In this document: positions 1,253 through 59,572 of the stretch, piece by piece
Layout: each line of letters begins with the position of its first letter
Position numbering within the stretch: position 1 is the stretch's first letter
Program-made: the position numbers and the translations under genes
Notes under the pieces: model-generated
The model's database searches: none
What the model was told of the DNA's origin: nothing
The model's input: only the letters and a program-made list of their open reading frames with translations
Assembly (NCBI GenBank): GCA_934167665.1
Contig: CAKPLN010000005.1
Span: 33,414-97,413 of the forward strand
Direction of reading: 5' to 3'
DNA: 64,000 nucleotides
Source: an uncultured Bacilli bacterium
GTDB lineage: Bacteria; Bacillota_I; Bacilli_A; RF39; UBA660

Positions 1253-2623
1253 TTAAAATTTTATTCTTTTTTCTACAAAATCACTAACCTCATCAACATT
1301 TAAAACAACTTGTTCCATTGTATCTCTATCTCTTAATGTTACTGTGTTATTATTTATAGTTTCGTCATCAATTGTAATACAAAATGGTGTACCAATAGCA
1401 TCTTGTCTACGATAACGTTTACCAATAGAACCAGTTTCATCATATGAAACCATAAATTCCTTATTAAATCTCTCATAAAGTTTTTTAGCTTCTTCACCAT
1501 GATATTTCTTACTAAGTGGTAAAATTGCTAACTTATAAGGTGCAAGATATGGTTTAAAACGCATAACTTCACGTACTTCACCATTATCTAACTCTTCAAC
1601 ATCATAAGAATTATCTAATACTGCTAAAACACATCTATCACAACCAACAGTAGATTCAATAATATATGGAACATATTTTTCATTTGTTTCAGGATCTAAA
1701 TACTCTTGAGATACACCAGAATATTCTTGGTGACGTCCTAAATCATAATTAGTTCTATTATGAGTACCGTTTATTTCACCCCAACCAAAATTAAATTTGT
1801 ATTCAATATCACAAGCTTCTTTAGCATAATGCGCTAATTTTTCATGATCATGATATCTTAACTTATCTTCAGGCAATCCTAAATCCATGAAATATTTCTT
1901 AGCATATTCTTTAAAATAAGCATAAAGGTCACTATCACTACCTTCTTTACAGAATGTTTGATACTCCATTTGCTCAAATTCAATAGTTCTAAATGTAAAA
2001 TTACCTGGTGTAATTTCATTTCTAAATGCTTTACCTATTTGCCCAATACTAAAAGGTAATTTAGCACGCATACTTCTTTGAACATTTAAAAAGTTAACAT
2101 ATTCACCTTGCGCATTTTCTGGTCGAAGATAAACTTTATTTTTTCCATCTTCTGTTACTCCTCTATGTGTTTCAAACATTAAATTAAATTGACGAATATC
2201 CGTAAAGTCAGTATGACCACATTTAGGACATGGAACTTTATGTTCTCTAATATAAGCTAACATTTCATCTTGCGTCATTCCATCAGCATGTGCATCTGGA
2301 TCAAAATCATCAATTAAATTATCAGCACGATGACGCATTTTACAATTCTTACAATCTATTAAAGGATCAGAAAAGCTTGCAATATGTCCACTAGCTTCCC
2401 AAACTCTAGGATGCATCAAAATTGCCGCATCAACTTCATAAGCATTACTTCTCTCTTGAATAAATCTTTTTCTCCAAGAATCCTTAATATTATTTTTTAA
2501 TCTAGCTCCAAGTGGACCATAATCCCAAGTATTAGCTAAACCACCATATATTTCACTTCCTTGAAATATAAAACCATATTGCTTACAATAAGCTACTAAT
2601 TTTTCCATTGTTAATTTTTCCAT
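1253..2623 (-). CDS. glyQS: glycine--tRNA ligase (single-chain class II GlyRS)
   Basis: 456 aa with class II aaRS motifs (FRNEITPGNFTFRTIEFEQME ...). The length and domain order match the dimeric GlyQS type. Confidence 0.9.
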   Translation of the reverse strand: MEKLTMEKLVAYCKQYGFIFQGSEIYGGLANTWDYGPLGARLKNNIKDSWRKRFIQERSNAYEVDAAILMHPRVWEASGHIASFSDPLIDCKNCKMRHRADNLIDDFDPDAHADGMTQDEMLAYIREHKVPCPKCGHTDFTDIRQFNLMFETHRGVTEDGKNKVYLRPENAQGEYVNFLNVQRSMRAKLPFSIGQIGKAFRNEITPGNFTFRTIEFEQMEYQTFCKEGSDSDLYAYFKEYAKKYFMDLGLPEDKLRYHDHEKLAHYAKEACDIEYKFNFGWGEINGTHNRTNYDLGRHQEYSGVSQEYLDPETNEKYVPYIIESTVGCDRCVLAVLDNSYDVEELDNGEVREVMRFKPYLAPYKLAILPLSKKYHGEEAKKLYERFNKEFMVSYDETGSIGKRYRRQDAIGTPFCITIDDETINNNTVTLRDRDTMEQVVLNVDEVSDFVEKRIKF

Positions 2624-3430
2624 TTAAAACTCCTCCAATTTAAGTTGATATACACTAATATCTTTTCTTTCTTCTCTTGCCTTTTCAACCATCAAATTAT
2701 CATTATGACTACTAACAAAACGTCTAGTAAATGAAGCAAACTCTTGTGGTATAGTAACAGAATATGCCTTATCATCAGAATCACAAATAGTAAATTCAAA
2801 CTCCCCATCATCATGACCAAACTCTATCATATCAATCTGCCTATCAGCCATAATAGTCTCTAAAGCATGTCCAAAAAAAGAAGCTTCATCTAACATTTCT
2901 GTATCATTTTTCTTTTGTCTTACTAAATAAAAATTAGCTACATTTTCATCTGACTCCTTACCAAGTGAATAAGATGACACTGTATCAGATACATAGAACC
3001 TAAAAGTTTTACAATCACTACCCATTAAATCATTTAAAAATTCTTCTCGTGATTCCTCATAATTATCTGCAATATCATTTAAAACTTCTCTATTAGGTAA
3101 CTCTGAAAAATTTAAACTTCTCTCACTATTATTAGCAAAACAAGACATACTATCACCAGTTGAAAGTAAGAATCTAGAATCAAGTCGACTTATTTTACTA
3201 TAATCTAAATAATATTGTACAATCTCTGAAACAGCTTCATCTCTAGACAAACCATTTAATCTCTCAGAAATAAAATGTGGTAAAAACAAACAGTTACAAT
3301 CATTATACTTTGTAGTTAAAGCACTATTTCGCCCCTTTCTACTAACAATAACCTTATCATGATAAATACTAATACTATGATAAAAATTAGAATCTAATAT
3401 CCTTAAGCCCTGAATTTTCATTGCGTACAA
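2624..3430 (-). CDS. hypothetical protein (268 aa) co-transcribed with glyQS
   Basis: Its stop abuts the glyQS start with no gap. It lies between the T-box leader and glyQS. Confidence 0.5.
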   Translation of the reverse strand: MYAMKIQGLRILDSNFYHSISIYHDKVIVSRKGRNSALTTKYNDCNCLFLPHFISERLNGLSRDEAVSEIVQYYLDYSKISRLDSRFLLSTGDSMSCFANNSERSLNFSELPNREVLNDIADNYEESREEFLNDLMGSDCKTFRFYVSDTVSSYSLGKESDENVANFYLVRQKKNDTEMLDEASFFGHALETIMADRQIDMIEFGHDDGEFEFTICDSDDKAYSVTIPQEFASFTRRFVSSHNDNLMVEKAREERKDISVYQLKLEEF

Positions 3431-3439
3431 CCTCCTAAA

Positions 3440-3620
3440 TAAAAAACTTCCAGAACAATATAAGGACGAAATAAATCCGCGGTTCCACCTTACTTATTCT
3501 AGAAGAATCATCTCTTGTCTATACTGCTAACGGTTTTCCAAGCCGGTCATCGCACTTATAACTACAATATACTAGTCTTTTTTAAAGATGTCAACATTAA
3601 GTTAATATTTATATATTTAA
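3440..3620 (-). promoter_or_regulatory. T-box riboswitch leader (probable Gly specifier GGC) for the 268-aa/glyQS operon
   Basis: The minus-strand transcript contains AAGUAAGGUGGAACCGCGG (the T-box consensus AAUUAGGGUGGUACCGCG) at about 3476-3492. A U-rich tract follows. accGGCuug lies upstream at about 3540. Confidence 0.65.
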
Positions 3621-3690
3621 TTTTTATAAGTTTTAAAATACAACAAAATTTTATCAAAAGAACTAAAACATAAAAACTCAAATAAATCAA

Positions 3691-4440
3691 TTACACACTT
3701 AACTGATTAATCCTTTTAATAAACTCCTTACTTTTTAAATATATTCCAGTATACTTATCATAATATTGTTCTAAAAACATTCCAATTTCTTTATTAACTT
3801 CATTAGATACTTCTAACTTAGTAATATTTTTAACATCAACATAATAAAACAATCTAATCATCTTAATAGTCTTTTCACTAACTATACCTTCATTATGATA
3901 ACAATTCCTACAAACGTATCCACCCATATCAGCAGAAATAGTAACAATCTCCTTATCACTACCACAATTACTACAAAAATCAAGACATGGAGAAACACCT
4001 AAATAAGTAAGTAATTTTACTTCTAAAATATTAGTAAGTGATACTGGACTAAATCCATCTTCTAATTTAAGTAATACGGAAGAAAATAAATCAAAAATAT
4101 CTGCATCATTATTTTCTCTCACAACTTGTAAAACTAAATCTATCATAAAAGATGCATAACTTACCTTTTCTAAGTCCATTACTATATTAGAAAACGAACT
4201 AATCAAATCAACACCAATTAAAGTAGATAGACCATTTTCTTTATAATATACATGAAACGTCCCATAAACTAACTTTCTACTAACACCACGCAATTTACTT
4301 TTTATGTTTCGACATCCTTTAGACATAACTCCAATCAAGCCATATTCCTTAGTTAAAACATTTAAAATTTTACTAGATTCACTATAATTAGTTTCACTTA
4401 AAACAATACCATCAAAACTTTCGATTTTCAAAACAATCAC
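3691..4440 (-). CDS. recO: DNA repair protein RecO
   Basis: 249 aa with a C-terminal CxxC...CxxC zinc motif (CSNCGS ... CRNCY). Sits in the conserved era-recO-glyQS neighbourhood. Confidence 0.8.
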   Translation of the reverse strand: MIVLKIESFDGIVLSETNYSESSKILNVLTKEYGLIGVMSKGCRNIKSKLRGVSRKLVYGTFHVYYKENGLSTLIGVDLISSFSNIVMDLEKVSYASFMIDLVLQVVRENNDADIFDLFSSVLLKLEDGFSPVSLTNILEVKLLTYLGVSPCLDFCSNCGSDKEIVTISADMGGYVCRNCYHNEGIVSEKTIKMIRLFYYVDVKNITKLEVSNEVNKEIGMFLEQYYDKYTGIYLKSKEFIKRINQLSV

Positions 4441-10293: not shown

Positions 10294-10464
10294 CTATTTT
10301 AAAGGACATAAACTATCATCTACAATTCTTCTTATAGCTGAGCCAGTACTTTTACCAGCGTCATATAAAATTTTAATCAAATTAACCATACTTGATAATA
10401 TAGTTCCTGTTATAGTAGTACCACCATACACATTTTTTAAATCATCATCTTCTATATTTCTCAA
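10294..10464 (-). CDS. double-glycine-leader bacteriocin-like peptide B (56 aa, TTG start)
   Basis: Not in the ORF track. Translation is (M)RNIEDDDLKNVYGG|TTITGTILSSMVNLIKILYDAGKSTGSAIRRIVDDSLCPLK. The leader has hydrophobics at -4, -7 and -12 and acidic residues at -8 to -11. GGAGGTG lies 8 nt upstream. The TTG start overlaps the stop of peptide A (TTGA). Confidence 0.5.
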   Translation of the reverse strand: MRNIEDDDLKNVYGGTTITGTILSSMVNLIKILYDAGKSTGSAIRRIVDDSLCPLK

Positions 10465-10598
10465 CCATTACACCTCCCTGGATTAGTAAAACCTTCTAAT
10501 ACTCCGGATAAAAAAACAACTATCGCTGAAACCGCAATACCAGTCCATACTGATCCACCAGTAATTACCTTCAATTCACTATTATCTAAACTTCTCAC
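10461..10598 (-). CDS. double-glycine-leader bacteriocin-like peptide A (45 aa, GTG start)
   Basis: Not in the ORF track. Translation is (M)RSLDNSELKVITGG|SVWTGIAVSAIVVFLSGVLEGFTNPGRCNG. The leader fits the LSxxELxxIxGG consensus closely. A GGAAGGAG RBS lies 5 nt upstream. The GTG overlaps the stop of the upstream 140-aa gene (GTGA). Confidence 0.6.
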   Translation of the reverse strand: MRSLDNSELKVITGGSVWTGIAVSAIVVFLSGVLEGFTNPGRCNG

Positions 10599-11017
10599 AA
10601 AATCTCCTTCCATACTAATTTAAAAATTTCAATAAAACCAATCTTTCTATCTAAAAAAACTAAATCAACAACATCATTTTCCTTCATCTTCTTCGTAGGA
10701 AAACTAATATAAACCAAATTATAAACCGTATTATTCCTCTTTATAGCACCCAACATTACCTCATTTATAGAATACTCATATCTAACATCATCAACATAAA
10801 GTATAGAATTTTTATATAAAATTTGAAGTTCACTATCAGAAACAACTGCCTCTACTAAAGAGTCCTTAGCTACAACTCCAGTAATTAAAAAATAACTATT
10901 AATCTTATAAAGAAAAGCCATAATAACACTAAAAAGTACCAATATTAAAAATAGTCCAACAACTATAAAAAGTCCTAACTTCTTTTCATAATTTCTTAAT
11001 CTCACTAATTTTACCAT
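10595..11017 (-). CDS. small membrane-anchored accessory protein of the bacteriocin operon (140 aa)
   Basis: N-terminal TM helix. It overlaps the ABC gene end and the peptide A start, so translational coupling is likely. Confidence 0.45.
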   Translation of the reverse strand: MVKLVRLRNYEKKLGLFIVVGLFLILVLFSVIMAFLYKINSYFLITGVVAKDSLVEAVVSDSELQILYKNSILYVDDVRYEYSINEVMLGAIKRNNTVYNLVYISFPTKKMKENDVVDLVFLDRKIGFIEIFKLVWKEIL

Positions 11018-13064
11018 CCTTCAACTTTAATATTCGGTTAAATAACTTATTTTCACTAAACCTATGACTAATAACTATAACCGTTTTTCCACTAAGATAA
11101 GTAAACATTTTCCTCATAATAAGCTTTGTCTTTTCAGAATCTATTTGACTAAAAACCTCATCAAAAATATAAATATCTCCATCATTAACTAAAGATCTTG
11201 CCAAAATTATTCTTTGTCTTTCCCCATTACTAAGATTACTACCATTTTCTTCTAATAATTGTTGATAACCTAAATCCTTAGAAATAATATCATCAACTCC
11301 AGTAATCTCTGCAATCTCTAAAAATTTATCTTTTGCTATATCTCTTCCTAAAACAATATTATTATAGATTGTATCAGTAAATAATGTTTCTAAACTGCTT
11401 ACATAAACAATATTTCTTCTTATTACATCCAAATGATAATGATTAATATCAATATTATTAATTGATACATAACCAAAAGGTACCTCAATATATTTCATCA
11501 AAATCTTCATGAGTGTACTTTTCCCACTACCACTACTGCCAGTCAATAAAATCCTCTCACCACAAGAAATCTCAAATGACAGATTAGTAAATAAAACTTT
11601 ACTATATGCAGTATAACTCAAATTATTAAACCTAATTTCACCAACTAATTTACAAAAAGAGTAATAATAATTTCCATTAAACTTCTCACAATCAATTGTA
11701 AATAACTCTTCAATCCTCTCATATGCTAATTTAAAATCTGTAAAACTGCCAATAAAAGTAAGAAGCCCATTAAAACTAAGCAAAAAATAATTAAAAACAC
11801 TTTGATAAACAAGTAAATTTCCCAGACTAATTTTTGATATAACTACCAAATAACTTCCATAGCCTAAAATAATAGTAACTAATAAATCATCTATAATATG
11901 CTTATAATTAGAAAAACAATTAGAAAAAAATACCAAAGAATAATTTCTTTCCAACAATTTTTTATACTTGAGTGCAAAAACATCAAATAACCTTTTTTCT
12001 AAATGTCTATTTTTTAAAGTTTCAGCACTAGATAATGCTTGTACTAAATCCGAATTAACTAAATCACTACTAAATTTTACTCTGGAAATATACTTTTTAT
12101 TAATCCTATCAAACACAATCTGACACATTAACATAACTATAGAAAACAAAAATATTAAAAGAAAAAGTCTCTTATTTAGTCTAAATAGTACAAAAGAAAA
12201 AACAATTAAACTTATAAAATCAGTGACAAAGAAACAACAAGCTTCAATAAGAAAAGACTTAACAGTATTTAAATCCTTAAATCGTGAAATTACTTCACCA
12301 GTTGTTCTATTTTTATAATATAAATATGGAAGTAGAAGAATATGATTATAAGTCTTAAAAGTAATTAAACTATCCATTAAATTACTACATTTTATTATTA
12401 AAATACCCCTTAACAAACTAGCCAATTCTCTAAAAATATATATTAGAAGAAGAACTGTACTAATCAAAATAATTGGTTTAGTTAAATGGTATTTTAAAGA
12501 AAATTCCAAAAGATATTTAAAATGGAAAGACGTAATTATTTGAAATGAAAATAAAATCATTGATAAAAGTAAAATCATTAATATCATTGCCTTGTATTTA
12601 AAAATAAATTCCCTCATAACTTTAACAATAATCTTTTTTTGTGACATAACAGGCAACTGTTTATATGGTTTAAGTAATATATACTTAGAACTAGACATTA
12701 ATTTAAACTCAGCTATAGATAAACTCCTCTTCCCCTTAGCTGGATCCATAACTAAAACTCTTTTCTTATCAATATCTATATCATATATTACAACAAAATG
12801 TTTATAGCTATTATTTATTACTACATGAGCAAGACAAGGTAAGTTATTCTTTTCTATTTTTAGCAAGTCTCCCTCAACACCAACTGCAGTAAAGCCAATT
12901 TTTTTAGCCGCTTCAATCAAATTATACGCCGAAACCCCAATCTTACTAGTATTTGTTATCTCTCTCAATAATTCTTTTGATATCTCTCCCCCATAATATC
13001 TAGTTACTGATAACAAACAACAAACACCACAATCTTTGGTACCATCTTGTAAAACTATCTTCAT
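10986..13064 (-). CDS. bacteriocin-processing ABC transporter with N-terminal C39 peptidase domain (ComA/LagD family)
   Basis: 692 aa. C39 catalytic Cys in GTKDCGVCCLL, a His region, a 6-TM domain, Walker A GSSGSGKST, signature LSNGERQRIILARS and Walker B IYIFDE. Confidence 0.9.
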   Translation of the reverse strand: MKIVLQDGTKDCGVCCLLSVTRYYGGEISKELLREITNTSKIGVSAYNLIEAAKKIGFTAVGVEGDLLKIEKNNLPCLAHVVINNSYKHFVVIYDIDIDKKRVLVMDPAKGKRSLSIAEFKLMSSSKYILLKPYKQLPVMSQKKIIVKVMREFIFKYKAMILMILLLSMILFSFQIITSFHFKYLLEFSLKYHLTKPIILISTVLLLIYIFRELASLLRGILIIKCSNLMDSLITFKTYNHILLLPYLYYKNRTTGEVISRFKDLNTVKSFLIEACCFFVTDFISLIVFSFVLFRLNKRLFLLIFLFSIVMLMCQIVFDRINKKYISRVKFSSDLVNSDLVQALSSAETLKNRHLEKRLFDVFALKYKKLLERNYSLVFFSNCFSNYKHIIDDLLVTIILGYGSYLVVISKISLGNLLVYQSVFNYFLLSFNGLLTFIGSFTDFKLAYERIEELFTIDCEKFNGNYYYSFCKLVGEIRFNNLSYTAYSKVLFTNLSFEISCGERILLTGSSGSGKSTLMKILMKYIEVPFGYVSINNIDINHYHLDVIRRNIVYVSSLETLFTDTIYNNIVLGRDIAKDKFLEIAEITGVDDIISKDLGYQQLLEENGSNLSNGERQRIILARSLVNDGDIYIFDEVFSQIDSEKTKLIMRKMFTYLSGKTVIVISHRFSENKLFNRILKLKDGKISEIKKL

Positions 13065-13121
13065 AAGAGCCTTATTTCTTCCACCTCCTACTTTATTATT
13101 CTAAAAAACTGTTACTTTCCC

Positions 13122-13300
13122 AGAACAAAAGACAAATTTTTAATTTGTCGCTTTGGTCGTCACCGATCAAAATTCCTACTTCACTGATAAAGTACCCTTT
13201 ATTCTCCATAGGCTTAAATTCCGATAGTCGCTACCGTACTCATTTTATTTTATTACTATCTATTCTTAAACTAACTTTCTTTGATAATGCATTCTTAATC
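13122..13300 (-). ncRNA. putative TnpB omega-RNA (reRNA) scaffold: tnpB 3' end plus right end
   Basis: Inferred from known TnpB biology. The roughly 145-bp right-end segment is almost identical in the copy at 58112-58255, which fits selection on an RNA scaffold. A guide would come from the flank just below 13122. Confidence 0.35.
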
Positions 13301-14426
13301 CTTCAAACATAATATTTATACTAGCATTTATATCTCGATCATTTTCGCATCCACACTTACTACATATCCATTCTCTAACATTTAAATTATCTGTCTCTTT
13401 CGTTGTGTTGTCACAATGACTACATTTCTTACTGCTTGGAAAATATGTATCTACTTGATAATAATATTTTCCTATTAGACTACACTTCCATTTGAGCTGC
13501 TGACATATCCTATTGAAACTGGCATCTAAAATATTTTTGGCTAGATTATGCTTATGTGTCATCTCTTGTATATTTAACTTTTCACTAACTATAATATCAT
13601 GTTCTTTAACGAGTCTATTTACAATATTAATTATATTATGTTTTCTACTATTTTTAATTTTACTATGAATTCTAGCGATTTTTTCTTTTGTCTTATAATA
13701 ATTATTACTACTCTTTATTTGCCTTGCTAGTTTTTTCTGTAATTTTTTTAATCTCTTTTCTCTTTTTAAAATTTCTTTTGGATTAGCATATTTTTCCCCA
13801 TCACTTGTCACAACTAAATCTTTTATTCCTAAGTCTATTCCAACTATATTTTGGGGAATAACGTTACTACTAGGTACAACAAACTCTTTTTCTTCAACTA
13901 CTACACTCACATAATACTTATTAGTTGTTTCTTTCTCAATAGTAGCATTAATAATCCTCCCACTTATTTTTTTTAAATTTCTATAACCTCTTATATCAAC
14001 TAGCCCAATTTTAGGTAATTTGATTTTTCTATTTACTAAATCTAATTCTATATTACTGTATTCACTATTTTTATATGTACTTTTAATGCATGGAGTTCTA
14101 TAGCTTTGCTTATTAAATTTACTCTTAAATTGAGGATAATTACCACGTTTTGAATAATAGTTTTTAAAGGCGTCTTCTAAATTAAAAACAGTACACCTTA
14201 AACTACAAGAATCTACTTCTTTTAAAAATGGATAATCATTGTATAAGTTTTTTATTTCTCCACACATGTCAAAAGCCTTTATAAGACCATTCTTTATACA
14301 CTTGTCTAGAAAATAGTTATAAATAAATCTAACACAACCAAAAGTTTTAGTTAAGAGCTGTTTTTGATAACTATTAGGATACAGTCTAAACTTATAGGCT
14401 TTATACATGCAATACACCTCCATCAT
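13266..14426 (-). CDS. tnpB: RNA-guided endonuclease TnpB (IS605 OrfB family transposase accessory protein)
   Basis: 386 aa. RuvC-I GIDLGIKDLVVTSDG, RuvC-II IIVSEKLNIQEM, a zinc finger CSHCDN...CSKCGC and RuvC-III NDRDINASINI. Confidence 0.9.
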   Translation of the reverse strand: MMEVYCMYKAYKFRLYPNSYQKQLLTKTFGCVRFIYNYFLDKCIKNGLIKAFDMCGEIKNLYNDYPFLKEVDSCSLRCTVFNLEDAFKNYYSKRGNYPQFKSKFNKQSYRTPCIKSTYKNSEYSNIELDLVNRKIKLPKIGLVDIRGYRNLKKISGRIINATIEKETTNKYYVSVVVEEKEFVVPSSNVIPQNIVGIDLGIKDLVVTSDGEKYANPKEILKREKRLKKLQKKLARQIKSSNNYYKTKEKIARIHSKIKNSRKHNIINIVNRLVKEHDIIVSEKLNIQEMTHKHNLAKNILDASFNRICQQLKWKCSLIGKYYYQVDTYFPSSKKCSHCDNTTKETDNLNVREWICSKCGCENDRDINASINIMFEGLRMHYQRKLV

Positions 14427-14743
14427 CTTGACTTACTATAATAAATTACAAACATATGTTTGTTAATATTGATGTTACTATTTAATAAGAAAATTTCTTA
14501 TAAGTTAAAAATATCACAACTTGGATCCGCCCCAGGGGTTATAATTGGCGAACATCTTGGATTTTTAAATTTTATTAAAAAGAAAAGTACTCTTAAGATG
14601 GAATGTCCATACTGTGGTGGTACTATGTTACCTATTGATTTAAAAAATTAGAGTTTTTAACTTTAATCTTTTTGGTATGGACTTGATTCTATCGAGTCCT
14701 TTTTTTGCTGAATAATAACCTGAACGCACTTTCCTTATATATA

Positions 14744-14773
14744 AAAAAAAGACTATTTTTTTAGTCTTTTAAT
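14744..14773. terminator. bidirectional terminator hairpin between the IS left end and the transglutaminase-like gene
   Basis: AAAAAAAAGACTAtttttttTAGTCTTTT. A second hairpin at about 14684-14712 (GGACTtgattctatcgAGTCC then T7) faces the plus strand. Confidence 0.5.
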
Positions 14774-14892
14774 ATTTTAAATATATTGGAAGTGGTTCAA
14801 AGAAAATATTTTATTTTGAGAGCAAATATTGTAATTAAATTTCACTTCCACTATCAATATATCACAATAGAAAAATGTAAACAATAACTTTA

Positions 14893-15783
14893 CTATATTT
14901 TTTCAAAAAGTTCACTATCTTCTATAGCAGGATACCACTCAGGGTGATCCATAATATATCCTTCCATCTTTTTTTGCTTTAAGCCATCATAATAATAGCT
15001 ACTACTCATATAGATTGAAGACGCAACTGTTGAATCAAAGAAGTAATATTTACCATTATATTCAACAACATTCCACATATGTCTTCCACTAGTATTACCA
15101 GTTACACCATAAGACTTAATACCAATATTTTGAAAAATAACCTGACTAGCTTTAGCAAAACCAGCACATACAGCTTTTTTTCTCATAAAAACACTATAAA
15201 TAGATTGATTCTTTGATGAAGAAGTAAAAGTTAAATCATAGTCAGTATTTTTACCAACCCAATCATAAACATACTTAATCTTCTCCCTATCATCCATATC
15301 CTTAGTATCGTACTTAATATCAGCAATTATCCTCTTTATTCTAGCCTCAGCAATCTTTTGTGTAACAGGGATTTTAACAGCATATTCAAAATTAACCCTA
15401 ATAGTTGAATCTTTATATAAAGCACTATAGTTAGAATAAGACATAAGTTCAGGATGATCTACTAAAATAGCATCATTAACAATACCCAGTAAAGAAAAGC
15501 AATCAGAATAATCCTTACACTGAAAATCATCTAAGCCAAAACTAATACTTCTCTTATTATCCTTAACATTATAAAAAAACAAATCATATAATTTTTTCTC
15601 TCTACTATTTAAAAAGTTATTATAAACATAACTATCAGACATATATAAATCATTAATATAATACTTATTATTTTTATCAATTAGTAAATTATTATCTACA
15701 GTTCTAGTAAAATTAAAATAAATATAAAAAGTAAATAATATAAGAAGAATAGTTAAAAATTTATTTTTCTTAAAGAAAAGCAT
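14893..15783 (-). CDS. transglutaminase-like cysteine peptidase family protein, membrane-anchored
   Basis: N-terminal TM helix and the Cys/His/Asp triad context CAGFAKAS...GRHMWNVVEY...FFDST. Confidence 0.6.
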   Translation of the reverse strand: MLFFKKNKFLTILLILFTFYIYFNFTRTVDNNLLIDKNNKYYINDLYMSDSYVYNNFLNSREKKLYDLFFYNVKDNKRSISFGLDDFQCKDYSDCFSLLGIVNDAILVDHPELMSYSNYSALYKDSTIRVNFEYAVKIPVTQKIAEARIKRIIADIKYDTKDMDDREKIKYVYDWVGKNTDYDLTFTSSSKNQSIYSVFMRKKAVCAGFAKASQVIFQNIGIKSYGVTGNTSGRHMWNVVEYNGKYYFFDSTVASSIYMSSSYYYDGLKQKKMEGYIMDHPEWYPAIEDSELFEKI

Positions 15784-20898: not shown

Positions 20899-21340
20899 AG
20901 AACAGAAGATAAATTTTTAATTTGGCATTTTACAATACAAATTAGCATCTTCACTTTGTAGGTAAGGCTTCTTTATTCTCCATAAGTTTAAAACGAAATT
21001 CTTTTACTATTCCATATTTTCATTTATCTAAGTATTTTAATAATACATTTTTAGGCCTTCAAACATAATATTTATTAATTATTTCTTTACAATAGTAGTA
21101 CTTATAATCATTAAACTTATTTTTTTATGTTTCTATAACATCCTATATCAACTAATCCAATTTCAAATAATCACCTTTAGTATTTACAAAGTTAAATTCT
21201 ATATTGTTATATTCTTTGTTATTATATGTACTTTTAAAGTATACATTTTTATAACTTTATTTATTAAATTTGACATTAAATCTAGTGTAATTACCACATT
21301 TAAAAAAATAGTTTTTTAAAAATGTTTTCCAAATTAAAAA
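20899..21340 (-). pseudogene. decayed 3' relic of the IS605-family tnpB element (right end plus tnpB 3' portion)
   Basis: AGAACAgAAGAtAAATTTTTAATTTGgC at 20899 and CCTTCAAACATAATATTTAT match the intact copy at 13122-14200. No intact ORF remains. Confidence 0.55.
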
Positions 21341-57957: not shown

Positions 57958-58048
57958 TGGCGGAGTAGGCGAGATTTGAACTCGCGCGCCAGTTGCCCGA
58001 CCTACACCCTTAGCAGGGGCGCCTCTTCAGCCTCTTGAGTACTACTCC
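57958..58048 (-). tRNA. tRNA-Ser (anticodon GCT), long variable arm
   Basis: The reverse complement is GGAGTAGTACTCAAGAGGCTGAAGAGGCGCCCCTGCTAAGGGTGTAGGTCGGGCAACTGGCGCGCGAGTTCAAATCTCGCCTACTCCGCCA. Acceptor GGAGTAG/CTACTCC with an encoded CCA. Confidence 0.85.
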
Positions 58049-58111: not shown

Positions 58112-58850
58112 AGAACAAAAGACAAATTTTTAATTTGTCGCTTTGGTCGTCACCGATCAAAATTCCTACTTCACTGATAAAGTACCCTTTATTCTCCATA
58201 GGCTTAAATTCCGATAGTCGCTACCGTACTCATTTTATTTTACTACTATTTATTCTTAAACTAACTTTCTTTGATAATGCATTCTTAATCCTTCAAACAT
58301 AATATTTATACTAGTATTTATATCTCGATCATTTTCACATCCACACTTACCACATATTCATTCTCTAGCCTTTCAATTATCCATTTTTTGTTGATTTCCA
58401 TAATAGTATATTTCTTACTACTTGATAATAATATTTTCCTATTAAACAACACTTTAATTTGAGCTGTTGATATGCCATATTTGGAACTAAATCTTTTAAA
58501 TTAAAAGCTGCAAACTTTTGTCTAAAAAATGATTACAAATAAGTCTAATTCAACCAAAAGTTTTGTTTAAGAGCTGTTTTTGATAACTATTAGGATGCAT
58601 TCTAAACTTATAGGCTTTATACATGTAATACACCTCCATCATCTTGACTTACTATAACAAATTACAAACATATGATTGCTGATGGTAATATTACTATTTA
58701 ATAAGAAAATTTCTTATAAGTAAAAAATGTCAAAAATTAGCTCTGCCCCTAGAGTTCATAATTGGCGAACATTTTGGATTTTTAAAGTTTATAAAAGTTA
58801 AAAAAATCATATGAGATTGGATGCTCATATTATGGAGGTTCTTCTTTTCC
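58112..58850 (-). mobile_element. internally deleted (MITE-like) copy of the IS605-family tnpB element
   Basis: The right end plus tnpB 3' end (58112-58400) and the tnpB 5' end plus left end (58540-58850) match the copy at 13122-14650. About 850 bp of tnpB is missing and the remaining ORF is broken. Confidence 0.7.
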
Positions 58851-58981
58851 AATCAAAAACTCTGAAGATGCGTAGGTTTATTTGTAGTGTAATACTTGAA
58901 TAATATTGCATTTTTTTATTTATTATAAAACACACTTTCCTAATAAATAAAAAAAACTCAGAAACTGAGTTACTTCTAAAA

Positions 58982-59496: not shown

Positions 59497-59572
59497 GGGG
59501 TGTTAGCTCAGTTGGTAGAGCAACTGACTCTTAATCAGTGGGTCTAGGGTTCGAATCCCTAACACCCCACCA
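59497..59572 (+). tRNA. tRNA-Lys (anticodon CTT)
   Basis: GGGGTGTTAGCTCAGTTGGTAGAGCAACTGACTCTTAATCAGTGGGTCTAGGGTTCGAATCCCTAACACCCCACCA, followed by a terminator-like hairpin at 59620-59645. Confidence 0.9.

Follow-up and report, generated by a model that had tools for sequence, protein, structure and literature searches.

A complete tnpB-only insertion sequence, present or absent among strains of an uncultured gut Bacilli species, ahead of a bacteriocin export operon

We conclude that positions 13122-14740, on the minus strand, are a complete insertion sequence (IS) of the IS200/IS605 family (IS1341 type), non-autonomous and recently mobile. The window analysed is a 64,000-nucleotide stretch of AT-rich DNA (27% GC) from an uncultured gut member of the Bacilli. 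Very probably, the whole is explained by a tnpB-only element that homes by means of an omega RNA, is moved by TnpA supplied in trans, and is nearly neutral for the operon behind it. Note that the element is classed as tnpB-only because tnpB is its sole gene and there is no tnpA. A preliminary description, made from the window, had recognized an intact IS605-family TnpB element lacking tnpA. This was borne out; all three Pfam domains, a D/E/D triad, and a zinc finger are present. The target is not duplicated and terminal inverted repeats are absent, as comparison of the left tip (ATATAAGG...) with the right end (...TTTTGTTCT) shows. The element and its insertion site are as follows.

13122-14740 (1,619 bp), minus strand: whole insertion sequence (window compared with empty-site alleles L006, L009, and L010)
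14741-14745, minus strand: TTTAT target, the candidate TAM, abutting the left end on its 5' side (empty and filled alleles)
14743-14770, minus strand: intrinsic terminator-like hairpin of the upstream transglutaminase-like gene (read from sequence and folded)

The extent of the element was set by alleles with and without it. An empty site occurs in three contigs (L006, L009, and L010), from strains that are approximately 99% identical. The proposed comparison with IS-free strains thus has these three empty alleles to draw on, and they show a clean insertion; they place the element at 13122-14740, not at the 13081-14700 first suggested. The insertion is a single scarless unit of 1,619 bp, with neither duplication nor deletion. 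The same element occupies the same site in six or more additional contigs from other samples (L001, L004, L007, L032, L033, and L036). Hence, the insertion is polymorphic among strains of one uncultured gut Bacilli species. Flanking DNA differs by 0.4-1.2% from strain to strain, with empty alleles scattered among filled ones, and the element itself diverges by 0.6-2.7% among carriers. Note that the relatives used for comparison are metagenome-assembled genomes (MAGs) of uncultured Bacilli, Mollicutes, or Tenericutes.

The empty-allele junction reads ...TTTTTTTTAT/GGGAAAG, where the slash marks the insertion point (also written TTTTTTTTAT/GGGAAAGTAAC). In L006 and L009, TTTAT is followed immediately by GGGAAAGTAACAGTTT; that is, the TAM and an exact 16-nt match to the would-be guide. 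The L010 allele has the same match with one C>T change at position 11. The terminator hairpin, AAAAGACTA-loop-TAGTCTTTT followed by T8, is found in both empty and filled alleles. The IS lies at the end of this T-tract, 57 nt ahead of the transporter ATG.

The only gene in the element encodes TnpB.

13266-14408, minus strand: tnpB coding sequence, 380 aa (Pfam domains, alignment with ISDra2, and dN/dS)

The open reading frame can be read from 14426 (13266-14426, minus strand, 386 aa). The true start is likely the ATG at 14408, which is preceded by GGAGG; the MYKAYKF encoded there is the start in all relatives. An exact-sequence look-up found the 380-aa form on record and not the 386-aa form. 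Matches to HTH_OrfB_IS605 (PF12323, E 1.2e-16), OrfB_IS605 (PF01385, E 9.9e-26), and Cas12f1-like_TNB (PF07282, E 4.1e-17) all exceed the curated cut-offs. The protein aligns end to end with ISDra2 TnpB (8h1j/8bf8) over 370 residues (E about 1e-60). In this alignment, D198, E282, and D365 coincide with catalytic D191/E278/D361, and C335xxC338...C355xxC358 with the zinc finger (386-aa numbering throughout). Purifying selection is evident from dN/dS values of 0.10-0.28. Homologues number 7,376, the closest being 97% identical and at the same locus. The TnpB of L035, which is >90% identical, is at a different locus and has another flank. The closest annotated plasmid TnpBs are approximately 40% identical.

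We then considered the right end, where the following features were found.

13122-13242 (121 nt), minus strand: conserved structured core, the putative omega-RNA scaffold (covariation and covariance model)
13131-13149, minus strand: right-end subterminal hairpin GACAAATT-AAA-AATTTGTC (covariation helices 6 and 7)
13106-13121 (16 nt), minus strand: flank transcribed as putative guide, RNA 5'-GGGAAAGUAACAGUUU-3' (right-end divergence point and empty alleles)

The core has five stems, of which one carries a GNRA loop; its last letters are TCTTTTGTTCT. That the scaffold is conserved and of the omega-RNA type, as proposed at the outset, is upheld by covariation across 16 distinct right ends (the present one and 15 relatives). 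Of all cells in 32 pairs, 95.5% are paired, 9 pairs show compensatory changes, and 0 of 500 shuffles did as well, support that is limited by the fairly close relationship of these sequences (effective sequence number 1.16). When the alignment was slid, as a control, 38-52% of cells were paired. The covariance model score for the core is 143.5 bits. Conversely, by single-sequence folding, the minimum free energy of the right end is no lower than that of shuffled sequences (z = -0.64). Since this energy is not unusual, structure was judged from covariation. Comparison with known covariance models, also suggested previously, matched the RNA to no Rfam family. Searches of the whole window at the gathering threshold, and of 12900-15000 at E <= 10, returned tRNAs and chance matches only, and no omega-RNA-like family.

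In an alignment of 19 related right ends, similarity is lost exactly after ...GTTCT, which marks the element boundary; the subterminal hairpin sits 9 nt from this end. The idea that a guide derives from the flank just below 13122 was sound. The string given for it was not, being shifted by one base and 17 nt long. We conclude that there is an omega-RNA-type scaffold at the right end, both structured and conserved, with the flank as its predicted 3' continuation. Expression of the omega RNA, the ends of this RNA, and transcriptional read-through are all things that we infer from sequence. Separately, a hybrid promoter pairing a -35-like TTGTCT in the right end with a flanking -10 was considered and rejected; by eye, the spacing fits L015 and not the present copy (26 nt).

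The left end is more complicated.

14723-14740, minus strand: outer left-end tip ATATAAGGAAAGTGCGTT (shared with relatives)
14679-14707, plus strand: imperfect palindrome, as a hairpin with T7 terminator (terminator scan)
14489-14503, minus strand: inner left-end-like tip TTATAAGAAATTTTC (matches left-end tips of L015 and L020)
14438-14466, minus strand: candidate tnpB promoter TTAACA-17-TATTAT (promoter scan, 10/12 matches)

This end is 332 nt long, compared with approximately 95 nt in relatives. The outer 18-21 nt also open the left ends of L022, L025, and L030, and are near-identical in L017. Homology with the L035 copy stops just outside the inner tip, at TTTAAC/TTATAAG. By BLAST against the window and all loci, the extra 240 nt or so are confined to the present sub-lineage. 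Together, this suggests that the outer segment is a captured or composite extension. A small plus-strand ORF within it (MECPYCGG...) is not conserved in the second copy of the element, described below. The palindrome itself (14679-14699) is 41 nt inside the left end, and the second copy has a different palindrome, with T7, in a similar place. It may act as the subterminal hairpin that TnpA recognizes, or else may terminate antisense transcripts. Left and right hairpins look alike in the present copy, as a TnpA signature might; the likeness is absent from L022 and L025. The candidate tnpB promoter encloses a perfect 16-nt palindrome, ACAAACATATGTTTGT (14448-14463), which is conserved and is another place where TnpA might bind. 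Relatives keep TTGAC(A/G)AAC-N4-5-GTTTG and then TATTAT or TATAAT. IStrons are fusions of a group I intron with an IS605/IS607 element, with the ribozyme at the 5' end. We rejected this explanation for the long left end, since no group I intron model matched; likewise, no other ribozyme was found in the window (gathering threshold) or in 12900-15000 (E <= 10).

Logically, these parts could operate as a homing system. Transcription from the left-end promoter, or processing of tnpB mRNA, would generate an omega RNA of approximately 140 nt with the 16-nt guide GGGAAAGUAACAGUUU. Together with this RNA, TnpB would cut chromosome copies that lack the element, where TTTAT adjoins a guide match. Recombination with the sister copy would then restore the element at the cut site. 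For movement itself, a Y1 TnpA would have to be supplied from another part of the genome. These steps are modelled on known ISDra2 and ISGst biology, and there are precedents for the targeting of donor joints (PMC10055086 and PMC8612924). The empty alleles read exactly as the TnpB homing model predicts, with TTTAT followed by the guide match.

Among the closest known systems is ISDra2 of Deinococcus radiodurans (PDB 8h1j, 8bf8, and 8exa), whose TnpB has the same three-domain protein, triad, and zinc finger. Like the present element, ISDra2 has its guide RNA at the tnpB 3' end, in the right end, with a flank-derived guide of approximately 16 nt (PMC8612924). In both, the site targeted by the transposase, on the 5' side of the left end, doubles as the TAM, and no target is duplicated. 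However, the ISDra2 TAM is TTGAT rather than TTTAT and, unlike ISDra2, the present element has no tnpA and resides in a very AT-rich gut Bacilli host. A closer parallel for the TAM is ISGst2 of Geobacillus stearothermophilus, where TTTAT is the TAM of GstTnpB2 (PMC10055086). Most copies of ISGst2 have no tnpA, and mobilization in trans is the proposed explanation (PMC10055086). As here, empty homologous sites in related strains expose the guide-targeted donor joint, and gutted, PATE-like copies retain the omega RNA (PMC10055086). The last five bases differ, being GTTCT in the present element and TTCAC in ISGst2. Elements of the IS1341 type with 3' sense-overlapping ncRNAs also have tnpB as sole gene and a 3' ncRNA region (PMC4615843). 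The long, apparently composite left end distinguishes the present element from its own relatives. The element is intact but ordinary, and knowledge of the family is unchanged. What is added is a well-delimited natural TnpB element, with a TTTAT TAM, from an uncultured, very AT-rich gut member of the Bacilli. The example pairs a filled allele, an empty allele, and an exact guide and target, and adjoins an operon for bacteriocin export. Both TnpB-driven retention and what an IS does to the operon next to it could be tested in this natural setting.

Our next concern was mobility. The absence of an adjacent tnpA, reported previously, was confirmed; the neighbours are the transglutaminase-like gene on one side and the ABC transporter on the other. 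Six-frame translations of the 64-kb window and 31 loci contain no Y1 motif, and Pfam searches with eight unassigned ORFs of the window (145-265 aa) gave no Y1 transposase. A transposase in trans is therefore assumed, given that the search found no tnpA in the 64 kb or any fetched locus. The window does contain two other copies of the element.

58112-58946, minus strand: second copy, internally deleted, without tnpB (BLAST, sequence, and covariance model)
20899-21010, minus strand: third copy, a decayed right-end remnant (BLAST; covariance model 22.6 bits, E 0.006)

As stated in the preliminary description, the right end (13122-13265) is nearly identical to 58112-58255. Precisely, 142 of 144 positions match, including all 121 of the core, and the two share a 48-mer for which the chance expectation is 0. 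The second copy follows a hairpin, T8, and AT, between genes for tRNA-Glu and tRNA-Ser. The third precedes, by 79 bp, a short-chain dehydrogenase gene of the same orientation. All three window copies are on the minus strand, which is G-rich (plus-strand GC skew -0.24 to -0.46) and, according to the ORF table, has nearly all long ORFs of the window. The active (top) strand of IS200/IS605 elements is expected on the lagging-strand template (PMC8612924). Judged by skew, this is where the three copies lie, as the family predicts.

We turned our attention to the genes behind the element.

13065-13121 (57 nt), minus strand: retained transporter leader (filled and empty alleles equal apart from two SNPs)
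10986-13064, minus strand: ABC transporter with C39 peptidase domain, for bacteriocin maturation and export (Pfam Peptidase_C39, ABC_membrane, and ABC_tran)
10294-10613, minus strand: two small ORFs, putative bacteriocin precursors (ORF list and double-glycine leaders)

The precursor leaders are …LKVITGG/S and …LKNVYGG/T, and the ORFs have a weak match to Bacteriocin_IIc (E 1.2e-4), below the Pfam cut-off. As described at first, tnpB is directly upstream of the transporter and in the same orientation, both being on the minus strand. The distance of about 58 bp, from the right end to the ATG, was close to the exact figure of 57 nt (13122 against 13064). It had also been claimed that the insertion replaces or displaces the native promoter or regulatory region. 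Nothing was replaced; the insertion is scarless and the 57-nt leader is intact. The notion of displacement retains some force, in that promoter-like sites do lie upstream of the insertion. Most likely, the insertion is close to neutral for the operon. Behind the IS, the ribosome binding site region is still in place, as is a possible -10 box; the leader contains TAGAAT (13103-13098) and AGGAGG (13089-13084). A promoter scan of the retained 57 nt found none. TAGAAT could be a real -10 element, with a -35 position that straddles the junction.

We regard as doubtful, but possible, a reading in which the IS has cut the operon from its native promoter or regulatory region, leaving transcription to start from tnpB or the right end. 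The native spacer is 209 bp, and its only sigma-70-like matches (TTGGTA/TTGATA-18-TACAAT and ATTACA-16-TAAAAT) lie upstream of the terminator and insertion point, now 1.6 kb further away. This, and the empty scan of the leader, are consistent with displacement. However, even in the empty allele, these sites precede the terminator hairpin and T8. Hence, they would be poor promoters for the operon, unless the hairpin is an attenuator. Furthermore, promoter-like matches are no commoner than in shuffled sequence (18 compared with 13.3 +/- 4.6, and 2 compared with 3.1), and the retained TAGAAT is suitably spaced from the ribosome binding site. An alternative source of transcripts would be the conserved candidate promoter of tnpB. 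The scan found no minus-strand intrinsic terminator from tnpB to the transporter ATG, so read-through from tnpB into the transporter is plausible, and may add to or replace native transcription. Some expression of the operon is likely, since the transporter ORF is intact in most IS-bearing strains.

This intactness also bears on whether a polar effect of the insertion silences the operon, with the bacteriocin genes on the way to decay, which we consider improbable. In two IS-bearing contigs from Hadza samples (L036 and L037), the transporter gene has the same +1 C frameshift, at nt 736, whereas all three empty alleles have an unbroken gene; this could mean that expression of the operon behind the IS is poor. 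However, both broken contigs are one lineage, and so the frameshift is a single event. In seven other contigs with the IS, the full 692-aa ORF and both precursor genes remain. The insertion is also old enough for the 0.6-2.7% divergence of the element, yet the operon is not generally decayed.

TldR-like regulators have lost their RuvC catalytic residues, transposon ends, and mobility. It is highly implausible that the present TnpB is such a domesticated protein, using a fixed guide to regulate the bacteriocin operon; although guide-matching DNA is found 41-57 nt upstream of the transporter ATG, and many strains keep the insertion at the same site, neither the D/E/D triad nor the zinc finger is damaged, the element has both ends intact, occurs in several copies, and is polymorphic and mobile, a flank-derived guide is built into every element of the family, and the match in the filled allele should not be bound because it is preceded by the right end (GTTCT) and not by a TTTAT TAM.

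For the near-neutral, homing element that we favour, the sole aspect that might repay more study is insertion after terminators. In 10 of 11 related loci inspected, and at both window copies, the left junction is a T-run followed by AT (L025 has GT). Furthermore, all 13 independent sites of the lineage are directly 3' of a terminator hairpin with T5-9. Tentatively, and with the balance somewhat against it, the lineage may home specifically to the T-tract that closes an intrinsic terminator on its 3' side. In that case, what is recognized in single-stranded DNA could be a longer T-rich target, or one helped by the hairpin, rather than plain TTTAT followed by selection. We found nothing specific in the literature on terminator targeting by IS200/IS605 elements. 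If true, targeting of terminators would provide a safe site, shielded from incoming transcription, and would systematically place the promoter and guide RNA of the element ahead of the next operon. Here, the genes so placed are those for the bacteriocin exporter, tRNA-Ser, and the dehydrogenase.

The upstream transglutaminase-like gene (14893-15783), used as an exact-sequence query, returned contigs of other metagenomes. Some carried the same tnpB between the transglutaminase-like gene and the ABC transporter gene. In three contigs (L006, L009, and L010), the 'empty' alleles, the same two genes are just 209 bp apart. The empty-allele sequence is ...AAAAGACTAAAAAAATAGTCTTTTTTTTAT|GGGAAAGTAACAGTTTTTTAGAATAATAAAGTAGGAGGTGGAAGAAATAAGGCTTTTATG, and both halves are found in the window, separated by 1,619 bp. 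Hence, the element occupies positions 13122-14740. The preliminary description had proposed comparing strains that lack the insertion, and this gave the exact ends; its own range, 13081-14700, was about 40 nt off at each end. Comparison of filled and empty alleles indicates insertion 3' of TTTAT, without target duplication, deletion, or terminal inverted repeats. Note that the junction is ambiguous by 1 nt. This was settled by a second copy in the window, copy 2, whose right end likewise stops at ...GTTCT.

Each of the 13 independent insertion sites examined immediately follows a hairpin, the 3' arm of which abuts a run of five to nine Ts, then AT; these are the T-tracts of intrinsic terminators. 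The sites are two in the window (14741-14770 and 58947-58975) and the left junctions of L014, L015, L017-L023, L025, and L027, which are contigs of other genomes or metagenomes. Of the window's TTTAT-type sites, just 16% contain at least five consecutive Ts. Segments upstream of the insertion sites also form more stable folds than background (Mann-Whitney p ~1e-4). A target that is longer, or assisted by structure, could account for the pattern. Alternatively, only harmless insertions may survive. We found no report in the literature of a terminator-site preference in the IS200/IS605 family. This pattern, and the natural pair of filled and empty alleles, are the most useful aspects of the element.

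The protein-coding part of the element, and its downstream neighbour, are as follows (ORF listing and Pfam).

13266-14426, minus strand: tnpB ORF
10986-13064, minus strand, as tnpB: ABC transporter with a C39 peptidase domain

That tnpB is intact, as first described, was borne out. The ORF contains all three Pfam domains of TnpB (HTH_OrfB_IS605, OrfB_IS605, and Cas12f1-like_TNB), and ISDra2 TnpB structures (8h1j and 8bf8) align to ~370 residues of the product (E ~1e-60). In 386-residue numbering, D198, E282, and D365 align to the catalytic D191/E278/D361, and C335xxC338...C355xxC358 coincides with the zinc finger. With the RuvC triad aligned intact, a nuclease-dead derivative was rejected. The start codon is likely the ATG at 14408, giving 380 residues; GGAGG precedes it, and all relatives and public gene calls start MYKAYKF. 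Among same-site copies, dN/dS is 0.14-0.26; against more distant relatives it is 0.10-0.15. Among species-representative genomes, a scan yielded 18 relatives with 49-85% protein identity, all in MAGs of uncultured gut Bacilli, 'Mollicutes' or 'Tenericutes'. In contig L035, another locus, with another flank, encodes a TnpB of more than 90% identity. The nearest annotated plasmid TnpBs are ~40% identical.

Aligned right ends, from relatives and same-site copies, are similar through ...TCTTTTGTTCT, and similarity is lost directly after. Structure was analysed with 16 distinct sequences of a 121-nt core (13122-13242). The core forms five stems, one GNRA-capped, with 95.5% of cells paired and compensatory changes in 9 pairs (22 cells). 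In 500 column shuffles these values were never reached, and partner-slid controls fell to 38-52% paired; note that the sequences are closely related, with an effective number of 1.16. The single-sequence fold was not exceptional, and no Rfam family matched the right end. Together, the alignment gives good, but not overwhelming, support for a structured RNA scaffold. A covariance model built from it detected three copies in the window.

13122-13242, minus strand: scaffold copy 1 (143.5 bits)
58112-58232, minus strand: scaffold copy 2 (143.5 bits; 121/121 identical to copy 1)
20899-21010, minus strand: third scaffold copy, decayed (22.6 bits, E 0.006)

The near-identity noted earlier between 13122-13265 and 58112-58255 amounts to 142 of 144 positions. 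Beyond the right end, the adjacent 16 nt (13121 down to 13106), the putative guide, are GGGAAAGTAACAGTTT. An identical 16-mer directly follows TTTAT in the empty alleles, save that in L010 (1547-1565) guide position 11 has T in place of C, which could lessen targeting by the TnpB-RNA complex. TTTAT plus the 16-mer is the arrangement of transposon-adjacent motif (TAM) and target that the donor-joint model requires (PMC8612924; PMC10055086). For GstTnpB2, TTTAT is the experimentally determined TAM (PMC10055086).

As the preliminary description had stated, no tnpA adjoins the element; nor was any found in the window or the other loci scanned. The relatives are likewise tnpB-only, with a left end of ~95 nt. 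Hence, this is a non-autonomous, IS1341-type element, the common state of tnpB genes (PMC10055086). The other sequence-level features looked for in TnpB/omega RNA systems and the IS200/IS605 family were found, with subterminal hairpins supported by covariation at the right end (13131-13149) and present as candidates at the left end, and the element may be likened to ISDra2 and ISGst2 in its mode of working. An IStron identity was rejected, as Rfam gave no group I intron match. We conclude that this is an ordinary TnpB insertion, correctly identified and well delimited, from an uncultured host.

The same insertion is common to contigs of several cohorts (L001, L004, L007, L032, L033, and L036). 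Between strains, flanks diverge by 0.4-1.2% and the element by 0.6-2.7%. Ordered by flank similarity, filled and empty alleles are intermingled. Short contigs L002 and L011-L013 break inside the element, as expected of a repeat. Between L032 and L033 (IS at 2169-3784), flanks are identical over 3.2 kb, with 10 differences within the IS, and the IS is generally about twice as diverged as its own flanks. These observations suggest that copies have undergone gene conversion, or that repeat copies were mixed in metagenome assembly.

We turn to the operon. Beyond the transporter lie a gene for a small membrane protein and two ORFs that have double-glycine leaders. Given these and the C39 domain, 'bacteriocin ABC transporter' is a fair description, and the gene is co-oriented with tnpB as proposed. 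The suggested distance of ~58 bp from right end to transporter ATG was measured as 57 nt. The idea that the insertion replaces the native region did not hold, since nothing is deleted. Candidate signals are listed below.

Native spacer: TTGGTA-18-TACAAT (TTGATA in the window strain), sigma-70-like match (promoter scan)
Native spacer: ATTACA-16-TAAAAT, sigma-70-like match (promoter scan)
13103-13098, minus strand: TAGAAT, within the retained 57 nt before the transporter ATG
13089-13084, minus strand: AGGAGG, within the same 57 nt
14466-14438, minus strand: TTAACA-17-TATTAT, promoter-like site before tnpB (promoter scan)

In the native 209-bp spacer, sigma-70-like matches occur only upstream of a hairpin and T8 terminator, and of the insertion point; shuffled sequence has such matches just as often. 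If TAGAAT is a -10 element, the -35 position falls on the junction (TTTATG when empty, GTTCTG when filled). Read by eye, the effect of the IS would in that case be to modify a weak -35 element, rather than to remove a promoter. The site before tnpB has a TTGACA-like counterpart in relatives and encloses a conserved palindrome. From there to the transporter ATG, the scan reported no minus-strand terminators, and the right-end hairpin and TTTTGTT must be read through for any guide to exist. Hence, transcriptional read-through into the transporter gene is plausible. The proposed effect, displacement of the native promoter with transcription of the operon from the IS, is one possibility. Seven IS-bearing contigs and all three empty alleles retain an unbroken transporter ORF. 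In L036 (3842-5921) and L037 (1478-3557), IS-bearing contigs from Hadza samples, it is split into ORFs of 250 and 382 residues by a frameshift (+1 C) at nt 736; other filled alleles are intact. This is one lineage and one event, uninformative taken alone. Separately, the transglutaminase-like gene is parted from its terminator by a long inverted repeat (14786-14860, minus strand; ATATTGATAGTGGAAGTG ... CACTTCCAATAT). The promoter-like TACAAT box falls within this repeat, which could be a 3'-UTR structure or leader element.

In this sub-lineage, the left end measures 332 nt, against ~95 nt in relatives, and looks composite. Its outer tip resembles that of L022 and L025; further in, a tip-like sequence (14503-14489) resembles the tips of L015 and L020. 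Homology with the L035 copy begins just outside the inner tip, with none further out. The outer ~240 nt, searched against the window and the other loci, had no match outside this sub-lineage. This extra sequence (14467-14722), absent from relatives and bounded by the two tips, holds a non-conserved mini-ORF (MECPYCGG...) and one predicted terminator.

14679-14707, plus strand: hairpin and T7 terminator (terminator scan)

Copy 2 (58112-58946, minus strand) is internally deleted and has no tnpB. On its upstream side is the terminator that follows tRNA-Glu; 63 bp downstream is tRNA-Ser (57958-58048). Since its scaffold is perfect, TnpB from copy 1 could act with it in trans. Miniature PATE-like derivatives resembling copy 2 occur in L030 (2429-2815) and, with the same layout, L031; each has a left-end tip, a 55-residue tnpB remnant, and an intact scaffold. 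The third copy (20899-21010) may reach ~21200 and has traces of the tnpB C-terminus; a short-chain dehydrogenase gene in the same orientation follows 79 bp downstream.

All three window copies are on the minus strand, which is G-rich (plus-strand GC skew -0.24 to -0.46) and also bears nearly all long ORFs. This placement fits the preference of the IS200/IS605 family for the lagging-strand template (PMC8612924). Across the window (1-64000), GC content is 26-33% and the plus-strand skew is very strongly negative (-0.24 to -0.46). The plus-strand exceptions are tRNA-Lys (59497-59572) and two ORFs overlapping longer minus-strand ORFs. The remaining long ORFs and tRNAs are encoded by the minus strand, an extreme strand bias in this uncultured, spore-forming gut member of the Bacilli.
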